Shown here: one piece after another, positions 8,685 to 34,959 of the stretch
Position numbering within the stretch: the first letter of the stretch is position 1
Layout: each line of letters opens with the position of its first letter
Origin: a virus
Taxonomy: Duplodnaviria > Heunggongvirae > Uroviricota > Caudoviricetes
IMG/VR virus record: IMGVR_UViG_2541047812_000004
Coordinates: 1-37,579 of that record
Length of the DNA: 37,579 bases
Strand: one strand, 5' to 3'
Program-made: the position numbers and the translations under genes
Notes under the pieces: model-generated
The model's database searches: none
Seen by the model: only the letters and a program-made list of their open reading frames with translations
What the model was told of the DNA's origin: nothing

Positions 8685-10763
8685 ATGCTAATTTTAGAAA
8701 CAACATATAAGTTTTTATCCACCTCGTTAAGGCTTTCTATGAGCAGTTTCTTTTATATCCAGCCTGATTTAAAAAATGATACAAATGCTGATTTTTTGAA
8801 CTCTGTTGAAGAGTATGCAAATACTCATCAAATGCAGATTTATGCAATAATGAATCCCTTAGGGGAAAATAAATATAAATATAATAGAGACGATGTTCTT
8901 ATTATATTAAGCCCAGGATACCAATTAGCGTTCGTTGCTTTTAGTGATGATGTTGATGGTATACAAAATTTTATAGAGGATTTTATAGAGGATTTAGGTT
9001 CCTTATCAGATAAATACAATTATAAAGATACAATTGGTAGGCCTCGAGCGTGGAAAGATAAACTTGTTACTGAGTGCTCATACGCTGATTTTAGTTTCGG
9101 TAATCTTGATAAGTTTTTTGATGAAATTAAAATTATTGATGGTGTTCTGGCTAAAAAGAGTGAGTTAATTATCTCTCTCTTAACAGGAAGTATCAATAAT
9201 ATTGATAAAGTTAAAGGCAATGTGCCAGATAATATACTTGACAAGGTTAAGCAAAAGATAATTTTGTTTGACGGAGATCAGACAAGGTTTGTATACCAAA
9301 AATTTGATAAGAAAAAAGTTGTTATTCAAGGATTATCAGGTACTGGTAAGACTGAACTATTGCTTCATAAGTTAAAGGAAATATATTTGGATAAGGAGAA
9401 TTTAAATAGTAAAATAATGTTTACGTGCCATAATAAAATATTGGCAGACAATATGAGAAAGAGAATTCCAGAGTTTTTCAACTTTATGAAGGTCGAGCAG
9501 CAGATTAGCTGGAATGAAAGACTTTGGTGTGTTAATGCATGGGGTTCTCAATATGACGGTAACTCTGGCGCATATAGATATATATGTGAATATTATGGAT
9601 TAAGTTTCTATCGTTTTAGCTATGTGATGACTTTCGATAAAGTATGTAGAATTGCGTTGGATGAACTAAAAAAGTTGCCAAGCAATGAATTTAAGCATTG
9701 CTTTGACTTTATGTTAATAGATGAAAGTCAGGATTTCCCATCAAGCTTCATTGAGCTTTGCGAGCTGGTAACTCGTGATACTATTTATGTTGCTGGTGAT
9801 ATATTTCAAAGTATATTTGATACTAATATCTCTAATGAGATACAGCCAGACTTTCTTCTAAGTAAATGCTACCGAACAGATCCAAGGACATTGATGTTTG
9901 CTCATGGTTTAGGTATGGGGCTATTTGAAGAAGAACCATTAACTTGGTTAATGAATAATGAATGGGAAGCCTGCGGTTATATAGTTGATGAATCGGTAAA
10001 AGGTAAGTTAAGATTAAAGAGAGAGCCACTAAGAAGATTTGAAGATGTAACGGATGCAAAAATACATAGTGTGGAATTAATTAATTCCACATATGAAACT
10101 GAAGAAGAGAATATTTTGGGTATACTCCGTAAAATTAAGGAGGAGAATCCTACTGTTTTGGCTGATGATATTGGTATCATCTTTATTGATCAGGCTAAGA
10201 CTATATTTAAAATCGCAGACAGACTTGAATTGAGCGTGCCTAGATTATTAGGATGGAAGGTTAATAAGGCATATGAAACAAAAGAAAAAATTAAAGACAC
10301 GTTATTCATAAGTAATAAAAACCATGTAAAAGGGTTGGAGTTTCCTTTTGTTATCTGTGTTACTCGTGATATTATCAAGAGCCATTCTTATCGAAATTCA
10401 CTATATATGATGTTAACTCGTTCCTTTATTAAGTCATATTTGCTTCTGGGAGATGGGAATAAAGACTTACAGAATGAGATAGAAAAGGGGTTAGATGCTA
10501 TTAATGAGCATGGTTATATGGATATTAACGTTCCACCGAGAGAAGTCATTTCAAAAATAAGAACAACAATCAAATATGATGAGAAAAATATATCTCATTA
10601 TGATTTGGTTACAAAGGTCTTCGATGACTTACAGATTGAGCCGATATTTCGTACATCCCTGTATAATACAGTAAAAACAATCATGCCTGATTCTTTTGAT
10701 GTCGATAAAATTACTACTCTTGTTCGGTTCAACTATGAAATAATGCTTCAGGAGTCGAAGTGA
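8685..10763 (+). CDS. SF1 (UvrD/Rep-like) helicase-family P-loop NTPase with unknown ~200-aa N-terminal domain; candidate defence protein
   Basis: Helicase motifs read from translation: I GLSGTGKT, II FMLIDESQDF, III VAGDIFQSIF, IV CYRTDPRTL, VI VKGLEFPFVIC. AT-rich. Alternative start ATG 8739 (MSSFFY..., RBS TAAGG) may be the true start. Confidence 0.75.
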   Translation: MLILETTYKFLSTSLRLSMSSFFYIQPDLKNDTNADFLNSVEEYANTHQMQIYAIMNPLGENKYKYNRDDVLIILSPGYQLAFVAFSDDVDGIQNFIEDFIEDLGSLSDKYNYKDTIGRPRAWKDKLVTECSYADFSFGNLDKFFDEIKIIDGVLAKKSELIISLLTGSINNIDKVKGNVPDNILDKVKQKIILFDGDQTRFVYQKFDKKKVVIQGLSGTGKTELLLHKLKEIYLDKENLNSKIMFTCHNKILADNMRKRIPEFFNFMKVEQQISWNERLWCVNAWGSQYDGNSGAYRYICEYYGLSFYRFSYVMTFDKVCRIALDELKKLPSNEFKHCFDFMLIDESQDFPSSFIELCELVTRDTIYVAGDIFQSIFDTNISNEIQPDFLLSKCYRTDPRTLMFAHGLGMGLFEEEPLTWLMNNEWEACGYIVDESVKGKLRLKREPLRRFEDVTDAKIHSVELINSTYETEEENILGILRKIKEENPTVLADDIGIIFIDQAKTIFKIADRLELSVPRLLGWKVNKAYETKEKIKDTLFISNKNHVKGLEFPFVICVTRDIIKSHSYRNSLYMMLTRSFIKSYLLLGDGNKDLQNEIEKGLDAINEHGYMDINVPPREVISKIRTTIKYDEKNISHYDLVTKVFDDLQIEPIFRTSLYNTVKTIMPDSFDVDKITTLVRFNYEIMLQESK

Positions 10764-11389
10764 ATAAAGAGTATTATTTTAGTCTGGAGCAGGCTCAGTG
10801 TGACTGGGCCTTTAAGCCAATACGAACAAAGAAAGATGTTATTGAAATATTGATGAGATTAATCAAACTAATTTCTGTTTATACAGAACCATGCGAACAG
10901 AATGTGGTTGGGAGAGTGAAACTTCATATATCAAAGATGAGTCGAGTTTTCTTCTTTAGTGAAAATAAATATTATTCTCTTGCATTTCCTTTTTTTCTTG
11001 ATGAAATTAATGGTCAGATTTTATTTAGTAGTCCAGAAATGGAGTGTATAGATAGTTTTGTAACATCAAAAGTCATTTCTTTTATTAATGACTCCTCTTA
11101 TTTGAATAGTTCTTCTTGGGCCTTTTTTGAACCATTGTTAAATATTGAAGAACATCAAGGTATTCCCGGGTTTTGGCCTTTTCTTAGAATGTTGTTAACT
11201 TATGAGGATGGTTATATTAGATATGATGTCGATGAAGAAAGGGCTAATGGAAATCGTCATCCATTATATCATTTCGACGTCTTTTATTCTAATCCGCCAA
11301 CGTTTAAAATTGGTTTGAATGCACATTATACAAATGATGAAATGATTGATTTTCTTGATAGGGAAACTGATTGTCGTTATTTGAAATGA
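10760..11389 (+). CDS. Hypothetical protein (209 aa), partner of the helicase-like gene
   Basis: GTG start at 10760 overlaps upstream stop (GTGA) with AGGAG 5 nt upstream; translational coupling. AT-rich; no recognisable motif. Confidence 0.6.
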   Translation: MNKEYYFSLEQAQCDWAFKPIRTKKDVIEILMRLIKLISVYTEPCEQNVVGRVKLHISKMSRVFFFSENKYYSLAFPFFLDEINGQILFSSPEMECIDSFVTSKVISFINDSSYLNSSSWAFFEPLLNIEEHQGIPGFWPFLRMLLTYEDGYIRYDVDEERANGNRHPLYHFDVFYSNPPTFKIGLNAHYTNDEMIDFLDRETDCRYLK

Positions 11390-19853: not shown

Positions 19854-21608
19854 TCAATCCCAAAATAAATTATTATTAATATTGCTCATATCGAAAGTGA
19901 AGTTCTTTTCTGTAATAGTTTCGTACCTTTGTTCATAGATTATTTTTACATATCTAAACCCCTGTGTTACAGAGCGAATTTTTCGGGGTTTTGATGCAAG
20001 CATAACAAGTATTTCAAATACTTTATCAAGATAGTTGTGGGTGTGTTCAACTAAAAGGGGGGTAAATTTACCACCTTTTCCAGAATGGACTATGTTATTT
20101 CTTGTTCTATAAATTCTTCTGAGTTGCCATTCTAATCTTAACTTATGGTTATCTAAAGTTGATTTAATTGACTCCGGGGATGAAACTATGTTTTTTATAT
20201 ACTCGAAACGATCTGAAAGCAATGTGTAATCACGAAATTTAGCGGATAAAGATTCCCTTACTGATTCGTATTCAGGAAGAATCATTATATTGGCTAGTTT
20301 GTGTTTCGCTTTTGCTCCAGGTATTCCTTTTAAATGTGAGTTTAGTATGTGTCTATTCCATAACAGCAGGTCTCGGGTAAGGTTGTCAATTAAGGAGTCT
20401 ATATATGTAATATTCAGGAATGGAATTATACTTGCAGTAATATGTTCTATTGTTGCTTGATCCTTGGATTTAGTGTCTGTCGGCACTAATGATTCAAGAG
20501 CTATCCATAGATTTAAAAGCTGATTTTCAACATTTTCACTTTTTAATGCCATTGAATGTAATTGAATACTTCTCAAGAACTTGGCAAATGAACTATTTTC
20601 TAGAGAAAACTCAGACATCAATGATTCAAGACGTTTCTTGGCCTTTTCATGCTTTAAGTCCTTGCATTTTTTCATGGGGTTAAGTCTTTCAGCCACTTTC
20701 AAAGAGTCTGTATCAGTTATAACGAAAGCTTCATTTGACCAAGTAGGTTTATCTTTATGATGATAAATATTTAAAAAGGATGATGCTAATTTAAGTAGGT
20801 TTTCAGCATTCTCTCTTGCTGAATAAGAATCAAAAGCTTCTATATTTGATACGCAAACTATCTTCTTTCGTTGCAGATTTCTAAAAAAAACATGTTGGGA
20901 AAATTCTTCTGGTGGTTCTTTCTCAACAGACAAAGAGAGTCTTTCGAAAGTTGGCTCTGCGCCTAAAAACACTGGTTCAACAATAAAATATATTTTGTAT
21001 TTCTTTTTTTCGAGTTTTATTAAATCAAAAAAAGAAGAGACATCAGTGTTATTTGATATTTTATTATTCCCATAATAAAAAAATTGCTGGGTTAAATTCT
21101 TAAGATTATGTTGGCTAAAGCCAATGTAGAGTAATAAACTGATATAATTTCTTGTTAGCTTGCGTATGATGCTTCTTTCCCAGTTAGGGGATGATAACTC
21201 TTGGGTGATAAGTTCTTCACTTTTTTCTTTATATAATTTGGGTGGTAATTGAATGACCAGCATTTCAATTATTGAGCTTCTCTCTTTAGGGCTTATGTTA
21301 GTATTTTTTAGTTTGTTGAGAAAAGCTTGGTAAGCATCGCCTAATAAATCTTGTGCTACTTTATCACATGACAAGTTATGTATTAATTCTGCGGTTAAAT
21401 GTTCAATATTTTTAGGCTGAATAATACCATCCTCAACATCTTTAATTGTATTTAAAGTTTCTACTCCAATTGTTGGGGTATTCATCACTGAGGGTTTGTA
21501 TGTGTCCAGTGTATAGTCAAATAGCATTTCATCCAGTAATTGCGCAAAATATACTAGTGCTTTACAAGTGTCTGGGCAATCCCATTTATACAAAGAACGA
21601 AATTTCAT
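19854..21608 (-). CDS. Large AT-rich cargo protein (584 aa) with C-terminal HEPN-like Rx4-6H motif; candidate abortive-infection/defence protein
   Basis: Uninterrupted 584-codon ORF, ATG at 21608, opposite strand to flanking S and V, in the P2 orf30 position. C-terminal segment RRIYRTRNNIVHSG fits the HEPN Rx4-6H signature. Confidence 0.7.
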   Translation of the reverse strand: MKFRSLYKWDCPDTCKALVYFAQLLDEMLFDYTLDTYKPSVMNTPTIGVETLNTIKDVEDGIIQPKNIEHLTAELIHNLSCDKVAQDLLGDAYQAFLNKLKNTNISPKERSSIIEMLVIQLPPKLYKEKSEELITQELSSPNWERSIIRKLTRNYISLLLYIGFSQHNLKNLTQQFFYYGNNKISNNTDVSSFFDLIKLEKKKYKIYFIVEPVFLGAEPTFERLSLSVEKEPPEEFSQHVFFRNLQRKKIVCVSNIEAFDSYSARENAENLLKLASSFLNIYHHKDKPTWSNEAFVITDTDSLKVAERLNPMKKCKDLKHEKAKKRLESLMSEFSLENSSFAKFLRSIQLHSMALKSENVENQLLNLWIALESLVPTDTKSKDQATIEHITASIIPFLNITYIDSLIDNLTRDLLLWNRHILNSHLKGIPGAKAKHKLANIMILPEYESVRESLSAKFRDYTLLSDRFEYIKNIVSSPESIKSTLDNHKLRLEWQLRRIYRTRNNIVHSGKGGKFTPLLVEHTHNYLDKVFEILVMLASKPRKIRSVTQGFRYVKIIYEQRYETITEKNFTFDMSNINNNLFWD

Positions 21609-23518: not shown

Positions 23519-24116
23519 TCTGCTGCCACCGGGTTCAACACCACTGGAGCGCCGACTGGCACAAACCTGCAGCGGGATTTCTGATCTGCAGGTGCCGCTT
23601 CGTGACTTGTGGAATCCGGCAACCTGTCCGGTCAGTTTCCTGCCTTATCTCGCCTGGGCGTTCTCTGTGGATCGCTGGGACGAGGGCTGGACAGAAAGCG
23701 TCAAGCGCCAGGTGGTGAAGGATGCTTTTTATATTCATCAGCATAAAGGGACCACCAGTGCCGTGCGGCGGGTGGTGGAGCCGTTCGGCTTTCTGATCCG
23801 CATTATTGAGTGGTGGCAAACCGGAGAGGCACCGGGCACGTTTCGCCTGGATATCGGCGTGCAGGACCAGGGCATCACTGAAGATACCTATCTGGAACTT
23901 GAGCGACTGATAAGCGATGCCAAACCATGTAGCCGCCACATGATCGGCATGTCCATCAATCTGCAGACCAGCGGCCCGCATTGGGTGGGAGCCGCCAGCT
24001 ATCTTGGCGAAGAAATCACGATCTATCCGTATATCAACGAAACGATTATTTCCGGTGGCACCGCGCATGAAGGCGGGGCGGTCCATGTTATTGACACAAT
24101 GAGAGTGAATCCATGA
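23511..24116 (+). CDS. I: Baseplate protein (P2 gpI-like)
   Basis: Position between J and H; overlapping starts and stops. Confidence 0.8.
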   Translation: MNSLLPPGSTPLERRLAQTCSGISDLQVPLRDLWNPATCPVSFLPYLAWAFSVDRWDEGWTESVKRQVVKDAFYIHQHKGTTSAVRRVVEPFGFLIRIIEWWQTGEAPGTFRLDIGVQDQGITEDTYLELERLISDAKPCSRHMIGMSINLQTSGPHWVGAASYLGEEITIYPYINETIISGGTAHEGGAVHVIDTMRVNP

Positions 24117-25699
24117 GCACAAAATTTTATACCCTGCTAACGGATATTGGCGCGGCGAAACTTGCCAGCGCCGCCGCGCTCGGTGTGCCGCTAAAAATTA
24201 CCCATATGGCGGTGGGCGATGGCGGCGGAGTATTGCCAACGCCGGACGCCAAGCAGACGGCACTGGTAAATGAGAAACGCCGGGCTGCGCTGAATATGCT
24301 TTATATCGACCCGCAGAACAGTAGCCAGATTATTGCTGAACAGGTGATCCCTGAAAACGAGGGCGGTTGGTGGATACGTGAAGTGGGCCTGTTTGATGAG
24401 TCCGGGGCATTGATTGCCGTGGGAAACTGCCCGGAAAGCTATAAGCCGAAACTGGCTGAAGGCAGCGGGCGTACCCAGACCGTGCGCATGGTGCTGATTA
24501 CCAGCAGTACGGACAATATCATCCTGAAAATCGACCCTGCTGTAGTGCTGGCAACCCGTAAATACGTGGATGATAAAGTCCTGGAATTAAAGCTGTATGT
24601 GGATGACCAGATGAGAAACCACATTGCCGCACAAGATCCTCATACCCAGTATGCGCAGAAACATAATCCGACATTTACCGGAGAACCAAAAGCGCCGACG
24701 CCTGCAGCAGGAAATAACACCACTCGGATTGCGACCACAGAGTTTGTTCAGGCCGCTATTACTGCTCTGATTAACGGTGCGCCAGCCACGCTGGACACAC
24801 TGAAAGAAATTGCCGCAGCCATTAACAATGACCCGAAATTCAGTACCACTATTAATAATGCGCTGGCACTGAAAGCGCCGCTGTCGAGTCCGGCACTTAC
24901 TGGAACGCCAACAGCACCTACTGCGGCACAGTCGGTCAACAATACACAGATTGCCACTACGGCTTTTGTGAAATCGGCGATTGCAGGAATGGTGGGTTCT
25001 GCACCTGCGGCACTGGATACATTGAACGAACTGGCGGCGGCGCTGGGGAATGACCCGAACTTTGCCACGACAATGCTTAATGCACTGGCAGGTAAACAAC
25101 CGCTGGACAATACGCTGACTAATTTGAGTGGAAAGGATGTAGCTGGTCTTCTCACATACCTTGGTTTGGGAGAAGGCTCTGCATTACCGGTTGGGGTGCC
25201 TGTTCCGTGGCCTTCAGCCACTCCGCCAACAGGCTGGCTGAAATGCAATGGTGCGGCTTTTTCTGCTGAAGAATACCCGGAACTGGCAAAGGCTTACCCG
25301 ACCAATAAATTGCCTGATTTACGCGGTGAATTTATTCGTGGCTGGGATGATGGACGTGGAGTGGATGCGGGGCGAGCCTTGCTAAGTCTTCAGGATGACT
25401 CTTTTGAAGCTCACAGGCATGAGTCCTTTTTTTACGCGGGTATTTCACGCAATGAAACACCATTAAAAAATCTTCCAAGTTCAGACGAGATGCTGACTTT
25501 AAGTTCCACAACTAATGCCTTGTCCCCGGACAGTATTGATGCCACCAATTCGTTAATTGGTAATGATGATTACAACTGTCTGATTGAAGGAAATAAAAAT
25601 AACAAACGAACGGCAACGGGGTTGAGTACCAGTATTGTCGGTGCAGCAGAGACACGCCCACGTAATATTTCATTTAATTACATTGTGAGGGCTGCATGA
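24113..25699 (+). CDS. H: Tail fibre protein (P2 gpH-like), C-terminus inside an invertible segment
   Basis: Repeated fibre motifs (APATLDTLKEIAAAINNDP / APAALDTLNELAAALGNDP) and C-terminal LPDLRGEFIRGWDDGRGVD motif; the crossover site lies within the gene at 25149-25174. Confidence 0.85.
   Translation: MSTKFYTLLTDIGAAKLASAAALGVPLKITHMAVGDGGGVLPTPDAKQTALVNEKRRAALNMLYIDPQNSSQIIAEQVIPENEGGWWIREVGLFDESGALIAVGNCPESYKPKLAEGSGRTQTVRMVLITSSTDNIILKIDPAVVLATRKYVDDKVLELKLYVDDQMRNHIAAQDPHTQYAQKHNPTFTGEPKAPTPAAGNNTTRIATTEFVQAAITALINGAPATLDTLKEIAAAINNDPKFSTTINNALALKAPLSSPALTGTPTAPTAAQSVNNTQIATTAFVKSAIAGMVGSAPAALDTLNELAAALGNDPNFATTMLNALAGKQPLDNTLTNLSGKDVAGLLTYLGLGEGSALPVGVPVPWPSATPPTGWLKCNGAAFSAEEYPELAKAYPTNKLPDLRGEFIRGWDDGRGVDAGRALLSLQDDSFEAHRHESFFYAGISRNETPLKNLPSSDEMLTLSSTTNALSPDSIDATNSLIGNDDYNCLIEGNKNNKRTATGLSTSIVGAAETRPRNISFNYIVRAA
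25149..25174. repeat. hix/gix-like recombination site (left crossover site of invertible tail-fibre segment)
   Basis: ttctcacatacc-tt-ggtttgggagaa; 26-bp site with imperfect dyad symmetry; its right half is the exact reverse complement of the left half of the site at 26787-26812. Confidence 0.65.
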
Positions 25700-26304
25700 T
25701 GTATAACGCCATCTTAAATAATAAATTTATTGCCACAAAGGCAGGAGAGATTACCGTTTATAACTATGACAGTGAGACACGGGAGTATATTTCTGCATCA
25801 ATTGAATATCTTGCTGTGGGTGTCGGTATCCCCGCATATTCCTGTTTAGATGCTCCTGGCACACATAAGGATGGTTATGCAATCTGCCGTTCGGCAGATT
25901 TTAACTCATGGGAATATGTGCCAGACCATCGCGGTGAAGTTGTCTATAACACCGAAACGGGAGAATCAAAAGAAATCACAGCTCCGGGGGATTACCCTGA
26001 TAATACAACCACTATCGCCCCGTTAACGCTATACGATAAATGGGATGGTGAGAAATGGGTGACGGATACCGAGGCACAGCATAGCGCCGCAGTAGATGCA
26101 GCAGAAGCACAGCGCCAGTCGCTGATGGATACTGCAATGGCTTCCATCAATCTGATTCAACTGAAATTACAGGCCGGACGGAGTCTGACGCAGGCAGAAA
26201 CCAACCGACTTAACACGGTGCTGAATTACATTGACGCAGTGACGGCAACAGATACCAGCACCGCGCCTGATATTATTTGGCCTGTATTCCCTGAGACTGA
26301 TTAA
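25696..26304 (+). CDS. G: Tail fibre assembly protein (P2 gpG-like)
   Basis: Tfa-type N-terminus (MMYNAILNNKFI...) and C-terminal WPVFP; overlaps H stop. Confidence 0.8.
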   Translation: MMYNAILNNKFIATKAGEITVYNYDSETREYISASIEYLAVGVGIPAYSCLDAPGTHKDGYAICRSADFNSWEYVPDHRGEVVYNTETGESKEITAPGDYPDNTTTIAPLTLYDKWDGEKWVTDTEAQHSAAVDAAEAQRQSLMDTAMASINLIQLKLQAGRSLTQAETNRLNTVLNYIDAVTATDTSTAPDIIWPVFPETD

Positions 26305-26533
26305 CCTCAATTAGTATTGGTTCGCCTTTCTCATTAATTGTTAGCTCCATGCCCTGAGGAATTTCTGTAATAGTAAAAAACCAGTTGTCCTCCGGTAATT
26401 CAATAGCCCCGGTCACGTCATGAAGACCGGGGATTACTTCAGTCAAAGTAACTGGATTAAACAGGCGCACAATAAACCCTCCAGGAAAAAGCATTTGATG
26501 ATGGTCTGCCGTCGTACATCTGGCAGCGGGCAT
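26273..26533 (-). CDS. Possible alternative tail-fibre assembly gene (inverted cassette, may be truncated)
   Basis: Convergent with G, overlapping at the 3' ends, inside the invertible segment; only 86 aa and it overlaps the alternative fibre cassette, so integrity is doubtful. Confidence 0.35.
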   Translation of the reverse strand: MPAARCTTADHHQMLFPGGFIVRLFNPVTLTEVIPGLHDVTGAIELPEDNWFFTITEIPQGMELTINEKGEPILIEVNQSQGIQAK

Positions 26534-26786
26534 AAAAGCCGGTATTTGTTACCTGATCATCCACGATCATTGAAACGTGAACATTATTAGGTGTGCTCTC
26601 GTAATCCGTTCTTATTCTTTCCGCGATACTGATAAAACGTGAAAGTTTAGGCAGTGCAATTGGGTAAACAACTTTAGCCAGTCCATTATCATTAGATCCA
26701 CCGGTTCCAAATACTTCTATTGCACCATCTGACCAGCGTATCCATGCACCATTGGCATTAGCTCCTCGCTGAATGACATATCTGGC
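26457..26786 (-). other. Alternative tail-fibre C-terminal cassette (promoterless, fused to H only after inversion)
   Basis: Minus-strand frame reads through the right crossover site (FLNVGLGE...) and continues about 110 codons; it shares the LGLGE junction with H at the left site; no independent RBS or start expected. Confidence 0.55.
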
Positions 26787-26812
26787 TTCTCCCAAACCAA
26801 CGTTTAAGAAAA
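26787..26812. repeat. hix/gix-like recombination site (right crossover site)
   Basis: ttctcccaaacc-aa-cgtttaagaaaa; inverted relative to the site at 25149-25174 (shared 12-bp half-site ggtttgggagaa on opposite strands). Confidence 0.65.
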
Positions 26813-26867
26813 TGCAGCGATTACGACTAACTGGCATCATCCCCGATTTTTATTCAAGGAGATGATC

Positions 26868-27434
26868 ATGCTTATTGGTTATGTACGCGTGTCAACAAAT
26901 GACCAGAACACCGATTTGCAACGTAATGCACTGAATTGCGCGGGATGTGAGCGGATTTTTGAGGACAAAATCAGTGGCACTAAGTCCGACAGACCGGGGC
27001 TTAAAAAACTGCTTAGGACACTATCGGCAGGAGACACTCTGGTTGTCTGGAAGCTGGACAGGTTGGGGCGCAGTATGCGGCATCTTGTTACGCTGATAGA
27101 AGAGTTGCGCCAGCGTGGTGTGAATTTCCGAAGCCTGACTGACAGTATTGATACCAGCACCCCAATGGGCCGTTTCTTTTTTCATGTCATGGGGGCCTTG
27201 GCTGAAATGGAACGCGAACTGATAGTTGAACGTACCAGGGCAGGGCTGGCTGCAGCTCGTGTTAAAGGCAGAGTAGGTGGACGCCGTCCTAAGTTGACCA
27301 GCGAACAGTGGGCACAGATTGGGCGTTTACTCGAGGCCGGAGAATCAAGACAGCGTATTGCACTGATTTTTGATGTGGGCGTTTCTACCATTTATCGAAA
27401 ATTTCCGGCAAATAAGAGCAATGAATCTCCCTGA
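26868..27434 (+). CDS. Serine recombinase DNA invertase (Pin/Gin/Hin/Cin family)
   Basis: MLIGYVRVSTNDQNTDLQRNAL... with catalytic Ser in YVRVST is very similar to recalled e14 Pin; C-terminal HTH. Start at ATG 26868 with AAGGAG RBS. Confidence 0.9.
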   Translation: MLIGYVRVSTNDQNTDLQRNALNCAGCERIFEDKISGTKSDRPGLKKLLRTLSAGDTLVVWKLDRLGRSMRHLVTLIEELRQRGVNFRSLTDSIDTSTPMGRFFFHVMGALAEMERELIVERTRAGLAAARVKGRVGGRRPKLTSEQWAQIGRLLEAGESRQRIALIFDVGVSTIYRKFPANKSNESP

Positions 27435-27576: not shown

Positions 27577-28749
27577 ATGGCTCAGGATTACCACCACGGG
27601 GTGCGCGTTGTTGAAGTCAACGAAGGCACCCGATCCATTACCACGGTGAGCACCGCCATCGTGGGTATGGTCTGCACGGGCGATGATGCCGATGCAAAAA
27701 TGTTTCCTCTTAATAAACCCGTGCTGATCACTGATGTGCTGACTGCCAGCGGTAAAGCGGGTGAGTCCGGTACGCTGGCCCGTTCGCTGGACGCCATCGC
27801 TGACCAGGCAAAACCCGTGACCGTTGTTGTGCGTGTGCCGCAGGGTGAAACGGAAGAAGAAACCACGACCAATATCATCGGAGCAGTGACCGCTGAAGGT
27901 AAAAAAACAGGCATGAAAGCCCTGTTATCTGCCCAGTCACAGCTCGGCGTTAAACCGCGCATTCTCGGCGTGCCAGGTCACGACACGAAGGCGGTAGCTA
28001 CTGAGTTGCTGAGCGTGGCGCAAAGCCTGCGTGGGTTTGCTTACCTGTCAGCGTATGGTTGCAAGACGGTGCAGGAAGCAATCACTTACCGTGAAAACTT
28101 CAGTCAGCGTGAAGGAATGCTGATCTGGCCCGACTTTACTGGCTGGGACACGGTGCTGAATGCCGAAGCAACGGCTTATGCCACCGCCCGTGCGCTCGGT
28201 CTGCGCGCCAAAATTGATGAGCAGACCGGATGGCACAAAAGCCTGTCCAACGTGGGCGTGAACGGTGTCACCGGAATTTCTGCTGATGTGTTCTGGGATC
28301 TGCAGGACCCGGCAACCGATGCAGGTCTGCTGAACCAGAACGACGTCACCACGCTTGTGCGCAAGGATGGTTTCCGCTTCTGGGGTTCCCGCTGTCTGAG
28401 CGATGATCCGCTTTTTGCTTTCGAAAACTACACCCGCACGGCGCAGGTGCTGACGGACACAATGGCAGAAGCGCACATGTGGGCGGTGGACAAACCGCTG
28501 AACCCGTCGCTGGCGCGCGACATTATCGAAGGTATCCGCGCCAAAATGCGCAGCCTGGTCAGTCAGGGCTATCTCATTGGTGGTGATTGCTGGCTGGACG
28601 AGTCGGTGAACGATAAAGACACGCTGAAAGCCGGGAAGCTCACCATCGACTACGACTACACGCCAGTGCCGCCACTTGAAAACCTGATGCTGCGTCAGCG
28701 CATCACCGATCAGTACCTGGTGAATTTCTCCAGCCAGGTCAGCGCGTAA
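27577..28749 (+). CDS. FI: Tail sheath protein (P2 gpFI-like)
   Basis: 390 aa; AGGAGG RBS; order FI-FII-E-T. Confidence 0.9.
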
Positions 28750-28758
28750 GGGGACAAT

Positions 28759-29274
28759 ATGGCTTTACCACGCAAATTAAAACACCTGAACCTGTTTAAC
28801 GACGGGAACAACTGGCAGGGGATCGTTGAGTCGCTGACGCTGCCGAAATTCACCCGCAAATATGAGAAGTATCGCGGCGGCGGTATGCCGGGGGCGGTGG
28901 ATGTGGATTTGGGACTGGATGACAGTGCACTGGATACAGAATTTTCCATTGGTGGTACTGAGCTGCTGCTGTTTAAGCAGATGGGCAAAGCCACGGTGGA
29001 TGGCATCCAGTTGCGCTTTACCGGCTCTATCCAGCGTGATGATACCGGGGAAGTGCAGGCCGTGGAGCTTGTGGTGCGTGGACGTCACAAAGAAGTGGAT
29101 TCCGGCGAGTGGAAGACGGGCGAAAGCAACACCACCAAAGTGACCAGTACCAACAGCTACGCGAAGCTGACTATCAATGGTGAGGTGCTCTATGAAGTGG
29201 ACCTTATCAACATGGTGGAAATTGTGGACGGTGTGGACCTGATGGAAGCGCACCGCAACGCCCTCGGCCTCTGA
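28759..29274 (+). CDS. FII: Tail tube protein (P2 gpFII-like)
   Basis: 171 aa following the sheath gene. Confidence 0.9.
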   Translation: MALPRKLKHLNLFNDGNNWQGIVESLTLPKFTRKYEKYRGGGMPGAVDVDLGLDDSALDTEFSIGGTELLLFKQMGKATVDGIQLRFTGSIQRDDTGEVQAVELVVRGRHKEVDSGEWKTGESNTTKVTSTNSYAKLTINGEVLYEVDLINMVEIVDGVDLMEAHRNALGL

Positions 29275-29328
29275 TGTATCTGAACGGCGCGGAATGCCGC
29301 GCCAGAACCTAATTTACAGGACAGCAAA

Positions 29329-29631
29329 ATGAGCGATAAGCAGACTGAAAAGACCATTCAACTGGATACCCCCATCATGCGTGGTAAAACTGAAATCACC
29401 GAAATTGTGCTGCGTAAACCGCAGTCCGGTGCGCTGCGCGGTACACGCCTGCAGGCCATTATGGATATGGATGTGAACGCGATGATGACCGTGATCCCCC
29501 GCATCTCCAGCCCGGCGCTGACTGCACAGGAAATTGCAGAGATGGACCCGGCAGATCTCACTGCCATGTCGGTTGAGGTTGTCACTTTTTTGTTGAAGAA
29601 GTCGGTGCTTGCCGGTTTACCGACAGCCTGA
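29329..29631 (+). CDS. E: Tail assembly chaperone E
   Basis: 100-aa ORF immediately upstream of the tape measure; contains slippery T6G near its 3' end. Confidence 0.85.
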   Translation: MSDKQTEKTIQLDTPIMRGKTEITEIVLRKPQSGALRGTRLQAIMDMDVNAMMTVIPRISSPALTAQEIAEMDPADLTAMSVEVVTFLLKKSVLAGLPTA

Positions 29632-29765
29632 CGGTTGACGATCTGGTGGCAGATATCGCCACCATTTTTCACTGGCCGCCATCCGTTACTGACGTTATGC
29701 CGCTGACCGAAGTGCTGGAATGGCGGTATAAAGCGATTCAGAGAAGCGGGGCCAACGATGAGTGA
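29329..29765 (+). CDS. E': E+E' fusion produced by programmed -1 ribosomal frameshift
   Basis: Slippery heptamer T-TTT-TTG at 29586-29592; the -1 frame stays open (FFVEEVGACRFTDSLTVDDLVADIATIFHWPP...) to TGA at 29763-29765, overlapping the T start. Confidence 0.7.
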
Positions 29766-32700
29766 TAATAACCTGCGCCTGCAGGTCATTCTTAATGCGG
29801 TTGACAAACTCACCCGCCCATTCCGTGCTGCACAGGCCAGTTCGAAAGAGCTGGCTGGCGCAATCAGAAACTCCCGTGACGCATTAAAGCAACTCAATCA
29901 GGCGGGTAACAGCCTGGAAAAATTTCGCAAGCTGCAGGCCGATAACAAAAAGTTAGGCGACAGGCTGAACTATGCCCGACAGAAGGCAAATTTGCTTAGT
30001 TCTGAGCTGGAAGCGATGGAACAACCATCACAACGGCACCTTGTGGCTTTAGGTCGGCAAACGCTGGCAGTCCAACGCCTGGAAGAACAACAAAAATATT
30101 TGCAGAAGCAAACGGCGCTTGTGCGTGCAGAACTGTACCGGGCGGGAATTTCTGCGAAAGATGATGCGGGAGCAACTGCCCGTTTAGCCCGTGAAACATC
30201 ACGTTATAACCAGGAACTTTCGAAACAAGAGGCGCGGCTGAAGCGACTGGGGGAAGCTCAGCGCAGGATGAATGCGGCGCGTGCCAGTTATGCCCGTTCG
30301 CTGGAGGTGCGTGATCGTATTGCAGGTGCCGGAGCCACCACCACGGCTGCAGGGCTGGCAATGGGCGCACCAGTGATGGCGGCAGTAAAAAGCTATACCA
30401 GCATGGAAGATGCCATGAAAGGTGTGGCAAAGCAGGTCAATGGTCTGCGTGACGATAATGGCAACCGCACCGCGCGTTTTTACGAAATGCAGGATGCCAT
30501 CAAGGCTGCCAGCGAACAGTTGCCGATGGAAAACGGTGCTGTGGACTTTGCCGCACTGGTTGAAGGTGGTGCGCGCATGAACGTCGCAAATCCTGACGAC
30601 AGCTGGGAAGACCAGAAACGTGACCTGCTGGCCTTCGCCAGCACGGCAGCAAAGGCGGCAACAGCCTTTGAGCTGCCAGCGGATGAACTGTCAGAAAGTC
30701 TGGGGAAAATCGCCCAGCTCTACAAAATCCCTACCCGCAATATTGAACAGCTCGGTGATGCGCTGAACTATCTGGATGATAACGCCATGTCGAAAGGGGC
30801 AGACATCATTGATGTCATGCAACGCCTGGGCGGTGTGGCTGATCGTCTGGATTATCGTAAAGCGGCGGCGCTGGGTTCCACCTTTCTGACACTGGGCGCT
30901 GCGCCAGAGGTTGCAGCCAGTGCAGCAAACGCGATGGTGCGTGAATTGTCCATTGCCACCATGCAAAGCAAGAGTTTCTTTGAAGGGATGAATCTGCTGA
31001 AACTCAATCCTGAAGTGATTGAAAAGCAGATGACGAAGGATGCGATGGGAACTATCCAGCGTGTGCTGGAGAAGGTGAACGCACTGCCGCAGGACAAGCG
31101 TCTGTCTGCCATGACCATGTTGTTTGGTAAAGAGTTTGGCGATGACGCGGCGAAACTGGCAAACAACCTGCCGGAACTACAGCGCCAGCTAAAACTGACA
31201 GCGGGCAATGATGCGCTCGGTTCCATGCAGAAAGAATCCGACATCAACAAGGACTCACTTTCTGCTCAGTGGTTGCTGGTTAAAACCGGAGCGCAGAATA
31301 CCTTCAGCAGCCTGGGCGAAACGCTGCGCCAGCCGCTGATGGATATTCTGTACACGGTGAAAAGCGTTACGGGAGCGTTGCGTCGCTGGGTGGAAGCTAA
31401 CCCGGAACTGACGGGCACACTGATGAAAGTAGCCGCTATTGTGGCTGCGGTTACCGTAGGCCTCGGCACCTTGGCTGTGGCGCTGGCTGCAGTGCTGGGG
31501 CCGCTGGCAGTCATCCGTCTGGGATTCTCTGTGCTGGGCATCAAAACGTTACCTTCCGTTACGGCAGCAGTAACACGAACCAGCAGCGCGTTGTCCTGGC
31601 TGGCTGGCGCTCCACTGGCAGTGCTGCGACGCGGGCTTGCTTCATCGGGTAACGCAGCGGGTTTACTTACTGCGCCGTTGTCGTCTTTGCGCCGTACGGC
31701 ATCACTGACGGGAAATGTCCTGAAAACTGTAGCAGGTGCGCCGGTTGTACTATTGCGGTCTGGATTATCCGCTTTACGTGCTGTTGCTGTGATGTTTATG
31801 AATCCTCTGGCGGTACTGCGCAGTGGACTGGCTGCCGCAGGCGCGGTGCTTCGTGTGCTTGCATCTGGTCCGCTGGCGATGCTGCGCGTTGCCCTGTATG
31901 CCATATCTGGTCTGTTAGGTGCTCTGCTCAGTCCGATAGGTCTTGTGGTTACTGCACTGGCGGGCGTGGCGCTGGTTGTCTGGAAATACTGGCAACCCAT
32001 CACCGCATTTCTCGGTGGCGTGGTGGAAGGGTTCAAAGCGGCGGCAGGTCCCGTCAGTGCTGCATTCGAACCACTTAAGCCTGTGTTTCAGTGGATTGGC
32101 GACAAAGTACAGGCGCTGTGGGGTTGGTTTACTGATCTGCTGACGCCCGTTAAGTCGACCTCTGCCGAACTGCAGAGTGCAGCGGCAATGGGGCGGCGAT
32201 TCGGGGAGGCACTGGCGGAAGGGCTGAATATGGTCATGCATCCGCTGGACTCCCTGAAATCCGGCGTTTCCTGGTTGCTGGAGAAACTCGGCATTGTCAG
32301 TAAAGAGGCCGCAAAGGCAAAACTACCGGAAAGCGTGACGCGTCAGCAACCTGCGACGGTGAATGCAGACGGTAAAGTGATGATGCCATCGGGTGATTTT
32401 CCGTCATGGGGATATGGCTTTGCGGGGATGTATGACAGCGGCGGCTATATCCCGCGCGGGCAGTTCGGCATTGTCGGTGAAAACGGGCCTGAAATTGTTA
32501 ACGGCCCGGCAAACGTGACCAGCCGGAGAAATACAGCTGCACTGGCTGCCGTTGTCGCCGGAATGATGGGTGTTGCTGCCGCGCCAGCAGAGCTTCCACC
32601 GTTGCATCCTTTGGCGCTTCCCGCGAAAGGCGGTGAAGCGATGGTGAGTTGTGCAGCTACTGTGCCGCCCATTTACCGGATTGAAGCACCGACGCAGATC

Positions 32701-32835
32701 ATCATCCAGACACAGCCAGGACAAAGTGCGCAGGATATTGCGCGGGAGGTGGCCCGCCAGCTTGATGAACGTGAACGCAGGCTGAAGGCAAAAGCCAGGA
32801 GTAACTACAGCGATCAGGGGGGATACGACGCATGA
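29758..32835 (+). CDS. T: Tail tape measure protein (P2 gpT-like)
   Basis: 1025 aa, Ala/Leu-rich with coiled-coil-like N-terminal region and internal repeats; follows E/E'. Confidence 0.9.
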   Translation: MSDNNLRLQVILNAVDKLTRPFRAAQASSKELAGAIRNSRDALKQLNQAGNSLEKFRKLQADNKKLGDRLNYARQKANLLSSELEAMEQPSQRHLVALGRQTLAVQRLEEQQKYLQKQTALVRAELYRAGISAKDDAGATARLARETSRYNQELSKQEARLKRLGEAQRRMNAARASYARSLEVRDRIAGAGATTTAAGLAMGAPVMAAVKSYTSMEDAMKGVAKQVNGLRDDNGNRTARFYEMQDAIKAASEQLPMENGAVDFAALVEGGARMNVANPDDSWEDQKRDLLAFASTAAKAATAFELPADELSESLGKIAQLYKIPTRNIEQLGDALNYLDDNAMSKGADIIDVMQRLGGVADRLDYRKAAALGSTFLTLGAAPEVAASAANAMVRELSIATMQSKSFFEGMNLLKLNPEVIEKQMTKDAMGTIQRVLEKVNALPQDKRLSAMTMLFGKEFGDDAAKLANNLPELQRQLKLTAGNDALGSMQKESDINKDSLSAQWLLVKTGAQNTFSSLGETLRQPLMDILYTVKSVTGALRRWVEANPELTGTLMKVAAIVAAVTVGLGTLAVALAAVLGPLAVIRLGFSVLGIKTLPSVTAAVTRTSSALSWLAGAPLAVLRRGLASSGNAAGLLTAPLSSLRRTASLTGNVLKTVAGAPVVLLRSGLSALRAVAVMFMNPLAVLRSGLAAAGAVLRVLASGPLAMLRVALYAISGLLGALLSPIGLVVTALAGVALVVWKYWQPITAFLGGVVEGFKAAAGPVSAAFEPLKPVFQWIGDKVQALWGWFTDLLTPVKSTSAELQSAAAMGRRFGEALAEGLNMVMHPLDSLKSGVSWLLEKLGIVSKEAAKAKLPESVTRQQPATVNADGKVMMPSGDFPSWGYGFAGMYDSGGYIPRGQFGIVGENGPEIVNGPANVTSRRNTAALAAVVAGMMGVAAAPAELPPLHPLALPAKGGEAMVSCAATVPPIYRIEAPTQIIIQTQPGQSAQDIAREVARQLDERERRLKAKARSNYSDQGGYDA

Positions 32836-34504: not shown

Positions 34505-34723
34505 ATGATGATTTGCCCACTGTGTGGAAGTGCCGCCCATACTCGCAGCAGTTTTCAGGTATCTTCATTGACCAAAGAGCGTTACAACCAGTGCCAGAAC
34601 ATTAACTGCAGCCATACTTTTGTTACCCATGAAACTTTTGTTCGTTCGATTGCAACGCCAAAAGAGTCAAATCCGGTTCAGCCGCATCCAATGAAATCAG
34701 GACAGGTGGCGCTCTCTCTTTGA
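34505..34723 (+). CDS. ogr: Late transcription activator, Ogr/Delta zinc-finger family
   Basis: CPLCGSAAH...CQNINCSHTF matches Ogr CxxC...CxxxxC zinc-finger pattern (recalled P2 Ogr: CPLCQHAAH...CQNVNCSATF). Start ATG 34505; ORF-track start at 34472 rejected. Confidence 0.85.
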   Translation: MMICPLCGSAAHTRSSFQVSSLTKERYNQCQNINCSHTFVTHETFVRSIATPKESNPVQPHPMKSGQVALSL

Positions 34724-34800: not shown

Positions 34801-34853
34801 AACAAAAAACCCATCAACCTTGAACCGAAATGGCGGGGTTGATGGGCTCCACA
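34801..34853 (-). terminator. Rho-independent terminator on minus strand (probable ybjL terminator, near prophage right junction)
   Basis: 10-bp inverted repeat cccatcaacc / ggttgatggg; on the minus strand the hairpin is followed by TTTTTTG (complement of caaaaaa at 34801-34807). Confidence 0.5.
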
Positions 34854-34959
34854 AAATGGGGACATCAAAGAAAAGCAGTGGCACTAATTAAGACTGATGC
34901 CCTGCGGAAAAGTTCTGCGGTTGTGCAAAAAAAATTTCATTTTCAGGGCAACTTCAGTT

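Follow-up and report, generated by a model that had tools for sequence, protein, structure and literature searches.

Fixed-ratio pairs of tail assembly chaperones, made by recoding from one start codon, are textbook biology. Phage P2 shifts into the -1 frame at a TTTTTTG heptamer, which yields the E protein (91 aa) and the longer E+E' product (142 aa), and for neither P2 nor three relatives from Burkholderia was a downstream hairpin found (Lynch et al. 2010, PMC3091744). The experimental demonstration of the P2 fusion is credited in that paper to Christie et al. 2002 (cited in PMC3091744). The chaperone pair of phage lambda, G and GT, has been studied by Levin, Hendrix and Casjens (1993) and by Xu, Hendrix and Duda (2004, 2013, 2014), as cited in PMC5009743, where the G:GT ratio is reported as 30:1. 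In P2 and lambda the tape measure protein is bound by the short product and by the segment that the long product has in common with it; recruitment of the tube protein falls to the extension, and neither chaperone is part of the virion (PMC3091744, PMC5009743). For P2, the literature describes a fusion produced at a set minor frequency and an E' that tail assembly requires (PMC3091744, PMC5009743).

The window analyzed here, a DNA stretch of 37,579 nt, carries a P2-like (Peduoviridae) prophage of E. coli. Its tail genes are ordered FI-FII-E-(E')-T-U-D, and FII (tube) and T (tape measure) are separated by two ORFs that overlap each other, which is the P2-type layout (Table 1). The 521-nt E/E' region (29280-29800) is 100% identical to E. 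coli PA45B, whose tail genes are found at matching coordinates. Among named phages, Klebsiella phage 4LV2017 (Elveevirus) and Escherichia phage 500465-1 are the closest, both with 98% identity over the E/E' region. At an identity of at least 95%, this region is present in ~1000 of 5426 complete E. coli genomes (~18%).

Table 1 Coordinates of the E/E' locus, its putative recoding elements and the neighbouring tail genes in the window.
Feature	Position	Strand	Remarks
Tail sheath gene	27577..28749		Neighbour
Gene FII, tail tube protein	28759..29274	+	PF04985, 8.8e-60; upstream neighbour defining synteny
Gene E, zero-frame tail assembly chaperone, 100 aa, 10.9 kDa	29329..29631	+	ATG 29329, TGA 29629-29631
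SD-like motif GAGG	29575-29578	+	9 nt upstream of the heptamer; candidate stimulator
Slippery heptamer TTTTTTG	29586-29592	+	T TTT TTG in the E frame, X_XXY_YYZ phase
E' extension, -1 frame, 57 codons + TGA	29592..29765	+	Pfam and PHROG matches, coding signature
E+E' fusion CDS, join(29329..29592, 29592..29765), 145 aa, 16.1 kDa, pI 4.5	29329..29765	+	Predicted
39-aa 'GpE family phage tail protein' CDS (RefSeq/GenBank)	29646..29765	+	Starts at GTG 29646
Gene T, tail tape measure protein	29758..32835	+	PF10145; ATG overlaps the E' stop (ATGAGTGA)

Several features of the prophage outside the E/E' locus were also recorded. The last prophage gene is ogr-like (34505..34723); ~80 nt past it lies the host sRNA gene RybB (34801-34879, minus strand; Rfam RF00110, 105 bits), followed by ybjL, ybjM and grxA, and the prophage thus adjoins rybB. 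A repeat search (seed 14) revealed no convincing direct repeats marking the att sites of the prophage. An A+T-rich ORF of 584 aa (19854-21608, minus strand) is located between the tail-completion and baseplate V genes, the position of orf30 in P2; it has no Pfam match, matches the PADLOC ApeA defence model (1.4e-13) and is likely an anti-phage cargo gene. Between the replication and portal genes, at the position of the P2 tin/old hotspot, region 8685-11389 (plus strand) encodes a 692-aa UvrD-like SF1 helicase (PADLOC 'Helicase' PDLC03002, 2.9e-28) beside a 209-aa ORF that matches no family, and the two are candidates for a two-gene defence cargo. Region 24113-27434 comprises a tail fibre gene (24113..25699), a tail fibre assembly gene (25696..26304), an inverted partial fibre ORF (26457..26840, minus strand) and a serine DNA invertase (26862..27434), and it looks like an invertible host-range switch of the Gin/Cin type. 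The PA45B counterparts of these genes are annotated as frameshifted or partial.

Gene E is read around the slip site as GTT GAG GTT GTC ACT TTT TTG TTG AAG, with the heptamer spanning the codons ACT TTT TTG, 15 codons from the E stop. The -1 frame is shut by a TGA at 29574-29576 and is open from 29577 to the TGA at 29763-29765; counted from 29586 it contains 59 sense codons, 57 of which lie past the heptamer. A shift that yields the fusion is confined to 29577-29628, and this interval holds exactly one in-phase slippery heptamer. These features agree with the initial annotation, which had placed the heptamer T-TTT-TTG near the 3' end of E, correctly in both sequence and phase, and had estimated a -1 frame of about 58 codons, within one codon of the counted length. 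It had also noted that the terminating TGA overlaps the start of T, and the ATG of T at 29758 indeed lies within the overlap.

The heptamer by itself is unremarkable in the window. TTTTTTG occurs 22 times on the two strands (13.2 expected), and ~35 kb of crude ORFs contain 46 in-phase XXXYYYZ heptamers with a median -1 read-through of ~7 codons. Because such heptamers are common, the case for recoding stands on homology and conservation. Judged by sequence comparison, what goes beyond chance is the heptamer combined with the homology of the -1 ORF to P2 E' and with the presence of this arrangement in 364 of 367 related loci.

Both halves of the predicted fusion belong to recognized families. 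The E protein matches Pfam PF10109 (Phage_TAC_7, 'tail assembly chaperone proteins E, or 41 or 14'; 2.4e-18) and PHROG 103 ('tail'; 3.5e-42), exhibits 42% identity to P2 gpE by tblastn, and is named 'phage tail assembly protein' in RefSeq. The -1 ORF matches PF06528 (Phage_P2_GpE; 2.6e-18) as well as PHROG 1756 and 6416, and is 56% identical to P2 E'. On the predicted fusion, PF10109 occupies residues 9-88 and PF06528 residues 107-143, and PHROG 1756 covers residues 84-145, starting at the slip site itself. The predicted junction peptide includes VEVVTFLVEEVGACR. Searches with the fusion gave no match in NCBIfam, and none among PDB sequences, so that no solved structure is reachable by sequence.

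Conservation was assessed in three sets of relatives. The close set comprised 39 species-representative bacterial genomes together with close phages (41 loci), and all 41 loci have E' in the -1 frame and an in-phase TTTTTTG or TTTTTTA. The distant set consisted of 13 phages with 33-54% identity in E, from hosts that include Erwinia, Burkholderia, Ralstonia, Pseudomonas, Stenotrophomonas, Vibrio, Mannheimia, Acidovorax and others; in 13 of 13, E' is again in the -1 frame and a heptamer is present in phase. Addition of 320 IMG/VR loci gave a wide set of 367 loci having both halves; in 364 of them the overlap contains an XXXYYYZ heptamer in phase, and E' is read at -1 relative to E. The 364 conforming loci reduce to 255 distinct 60-nt contexts, in which the heptamer is TTTTTTG (184), TTTTTTA (30), TTTTTTC (17), TTTTTTT (11), CCCTTTC (6), AAATTTT (3) or one of four singletons. 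GGGAAAG and CCCGGGC are among the valid slippery substitutes found in relatives. The three exceptions comprise one contig with an indel and two whose T6 is replaced by T7 or T8; they are probably due to homopolymer-length errors or indels.

Three IMG/VR contigs (L236, L237 and L238; ~880-890) are near-identical, and what distinguishes them is solely the number of T residues at the slip site. A run of T6 gives the -1 arrangement, T7 places E and E' in one frame, and T8 gives a +1 arrangement. The differences are due either to sequencing error in the homopolymer or to genuine variation in the length of the slip site.

Past the E stop, E' carries a coding signature. The variable columns at -1 codon positions 1, 2 and 3 number 17, 6 and 31 (of 42 each), and the ratio of synonymous to nonsynonymous differences is 285:166 in the -1 frame versus 60:372 and 38:421 in the other frames. 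This ratio, together with the third-position bias, indicates that the -1 frame is the translated, protein-coding frame. Purifying selection is seen in the -1 frame only.

Anatomy, homology, conservation and the -1 coding signature, all observed directly, converge on one reading, and the locus is almost certainly a programmed -1 ribosomal frameshift site of the P2 E/E+E' type in a P2-like (Peduoviridae) E. coli prophage. Three other explanations were weighed against it.

It is very unlikely that E' is a separate small gene, initiated at GTG 29646 and expressed without frameshifting as a free 39-aa protein. This is how 29646..29765 is annotated in E. coli PA45B, in the plasmid-like phage p13P477T-2 and in Klebsiella phage 4LV2017; the annotated CDS is present across ~1000 E. 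coli genomes, and the PF06528 model covers the last 37 residues only. However, the 20 nt preceding GTG 29646 exhibit the weakest anti-SD pairing among the operon starts tested (-2.5 kcal/mol versus -4.0 to -11.0 kcal/mol), and the codon homologous to this GTG encodes Ala in RsoM1USA, Trp in VP585, and Ile in Mae-JY29 and the Mannheimia phage. A free-standing gene is also at variance with a -1 frame that in 364 of 367 loci is uninterrupted from the heptamer onward, and with a PHROG 1756 alignment that begins at the slip site. Between the heptamer and the GTG, 11 of 20 residues are identical to those of P2, including a VDDL that is located past the E stop, and for P2 itself the fusion has been shown by experiment (as cited in PMC3091744). 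The -1 frame has no start codon from 29577 to 29645. For the same reason, internal initiation driven by the SD-like motif in Table 1 was ruled out.

A ribosomal shift is likewise preferred to transcriptional slippage, by which RNA polymerase would slip on the T6 run so that a fraction of the mRNAs gains a U and carries E+E' as one continuous frame. The site is indeed a homopolymer of six T, and contigs L236 and L238 differ from their sister contig only by T7 or T8, which indicates that the run readily changes length or is misread in sequencing. In bacteria, runs of ~8-9 or more are those known to give efficient transcriptional slippage, and six U is shorter; the long, phase-independent homopolymer expected of such a mechanism is not what this run of six T provides. 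The non-homopolymeric heptamers of relatives (CCCTTTC, AAATTTT, GGGAAAG, CCCGGGC) fit tandem tRNA re-pairing rather than polymerase slippage, and the strict XXXYYYZ phase in 364 of 367 loci is needed for ribosomal but not for polymerase slippage. Polymerase slippage is therefore hardly credible as the source of the fusion.

Finally, a coincidental heptamer next to an unexpressed open -1 frame could be entertained because TTTTTTG is frequent in the window (22 copies) and other long -1 open stretches exist in the G+C-rich T gene, but its probability is negligible and the comparative sequence data already refute it: the -1 ORF is homologous to P2 E' (2.6e-18), purifying selection is restricted to the -1 frame, and the arrangement is kept across Enterobacterales, Burkholderia, Ralstonia, Pseudomonas, Vibrio, Mannheimia and other hosts.

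Under the preferred reading, that of a programmed -1 ribosomal frameshift, most ribosomes would reach the E stop at 29629-29631 and produce the 100-aa tail assembly chaperone. A minority would slip back by one base with tRNA-Phe on UUU 29587-29589 in the P site and tRNA-Leu on UUG 29590-29592 in the A site, and both tRNAs would re-pair on UUU UUU (29586-29591). Reading would then resume at GUU 29592 in the -1 frame and proceed to the UGA at 29763-29765, giving the 145-aa E+E' protein. Base pairing of 16S rRNA with the GAGG located 9 nt upstream may promote the slip. By analogy to lambda G/GT, T, the tape measure protein, would be coated by the E part common to both products, and FII, the tube protein, would be recruited by E'; a fixed slip frequency would set the ratio of E to E+E' needed for tail assembly. 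For the window we infer the synthesis of the fusion, the slip frequency and the chaperone roles of the two products from the described systems.

Downstream RNA structure was sought as a stimulator of the shift. Folds of the 105 nt and 55 nt past the heptamer in the window have z values of -1.18 and -0.36 and do not support a structure, and the corresponding 55-nt folds in 11 other phages range from z -1.65 to +1.68. An RNAalifold consensus of 20 sequences reached -5.3 kcal/mol with a covariation term of -0.49, which does not support a conserved structure. A 6-bp hairpin (29601-29606/29619-29624) begins 8 nt past the heptamer, and 83% of its cells are paired in close relatives; it was rejected as an element, as its covariation is no better than that of shuffles or slid controls.

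U_UUU_UUG is absent from the heptamers that were efficient in E. coli reporters (Sharma et al. 2014, PMC4066793), yet P2-type sites are reported to be 2-3 fold more efficient than the 30:1 ratio of lambda (Atkins et al. 2016, PMC5009743). The weakness of this heptamer and the lack of a supported downstream structure, set against the higher reported efficiency, led to a search for an upstream stimulator. Stimulatory SD-like motifs are spaced 6-17 nt upstream of the heptamer (Sharma et al. 2014, PMC4066793), and GAGG at 29575-29578 qualifies under the criteria of that study. An SD-like motif is present in 46 of 52 loci versus ~15% of arbitrary positions. Since the motif overlaps conserved (E/K/Q)-V codons, a synonymous-codon shuffle was chosen as the null, in which synonymous codons are shuffled within each E gene while the protein sequence and codon usage are held fixed. 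Against this null, the motif occurs in 57 of 87 clusters formed at 70% identity (34.6 expected, z 6.5) and in 29 of 50 clusters formed at 55% identity (17.9 expected, z 4.3), both z values still including whatever ancestry the clusters have in common. Control positions 15-120 nt upstream gave z values of -1.3 to +1.4, and the spacings of the motif peak at 6-10 nt.

In the first 13 distant phages, the motif was found at every TTTTTTG site and at 0 of 5 sites with TTTTTTT, TTTTTTC, AAATTTT or CCCTTTC. This correlation with heptamer type is weak in the 255 contexts, where the motif accompanies 70% of TTTTTTG, 97% of TTTTTTA, 59% of TTTTTTC and 45% of TTTTTTT heptamers, and only the overall enrichment is claimed. 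Enrichment at synonymous sites across the family supports the hypothesis that the SD-like motif is a frameshift stimulator, for which it is at present a candidate. More specifically, the P2-type site may not be bare: an SD-like element 6-10 nt upstream could pair with the 16S rRNA of the elongating ribosome and raise slippage on the weak U_UUU_UUG, a tentative proposal that we would place slightly below an even chance. If true, it would account for shifting 2-3 times more frequent than that of lambda in the absence of a downstream structure. No description of an SD-like element at P2-type sites was found in searchable papers. The family, with its variable heptamer, its 255 contexts and its lack of a supported downstream structure, is well suited as a natural experiment that would show cleanly if -1 frameshifting can be tuned by an upstream SD-like element on its own.

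The recoding site itself is of a known and ordinary kind, a textbook site that is usually annotated as two genes. The 39-aa 'GpE family' CDS is judged to be an annotation artefact that represents the 3' part of E'. Public annotation of E' is systematically wrong, with RefSeq/PGAP and several GenBank phage records giving a free-standing 39-aa CDS in place of the 145-aa joined product, and the mis-annotated locus is very common, occurring in ~18% of complete E. coli genomes.

Among other recoding sites, E. coli dnaX and IS911 share with the window an in-phase XXXYYYZ heptamer that follows an SD-like motif at a spacing of 6-17 nt. They also use a downstream hairpin or pseudoknot, whereas no such element is supported in the window. 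Lambda G/GT likewise consists of two overlapping ORFs between the major tail/tube gene and the tape measure gene, and in both cases the stop of the second ORF overlaps the start of the tape measure gene by 8 nt (ATGGCTGA at lambda T/H, positions 1543-1550 of locus L057, and ATGAGTGA at 29758-29765 in the window). The heptamers differ (G GGA AAG in lambda, T TTT TTG in the window), the lambda tail is non-contractile, unlike that of the window's phage, and a BLASTP comparison of the E protein with lambda gpG gave no alignment at an expectation value of 100 or below. The relation between E and lambda G is thus one of functional and positional analogy. Concerning the overlap in the window, the ribosomes that terminate at the E' stop are the frameshifted ones only, and initiation of the tape measure gene might consequently be partly coupled to the frameshift. 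The T start has a moderate SD sequence of its own (-7.0 kcal/mol).

The closest counterpart is P2, although the window prophage belongs to a different Peduoviridae lineage. The P2 record (NC_001895) gives E as 91 aa and E+E' as a joined CDS of 142 aa with a 'site of -1 translational frameshift', and joined -1 annotations are also found in the records of L-413C, KS5, PsP3 and Smp131. The SD-like element differs, being GAGG at distance 9 in the window and AGGTG/GGTGG at distances 7 and 6 in P2. The zero-frame tail of E past the slip site is 13 aa long in the window and 6 aa in P2; this longer tail accounts for an E protein of 100 rather than 91 aa, and the lengths of E+E' (145 versus 142 aa) are related to it as well. 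A downstream structure is supported in neither phage. The FII-E-(E')-T order is common to both, as is the 8-nt overlap of the E' stop with the T start (ATGAGTAA in P2, ATGAGTGA in the window). The P2 slip site reads GGT TTT TTG, so that heptamer, phase and homologous codon are all identical to those of the window, and the window fusion aligns with P2 E+E' at 48% identity without a gap at the junction (E value 5e-50). Layout, E homology, -1 E' homology, an in-phase heptamer and an E' with no start of its own are thus all found, as in P2. The initial annotation had likewise read the locus as a P2-type E/E' tail-chaperone frameshift, and homology, phase, gene order and conservation all agree with P2.
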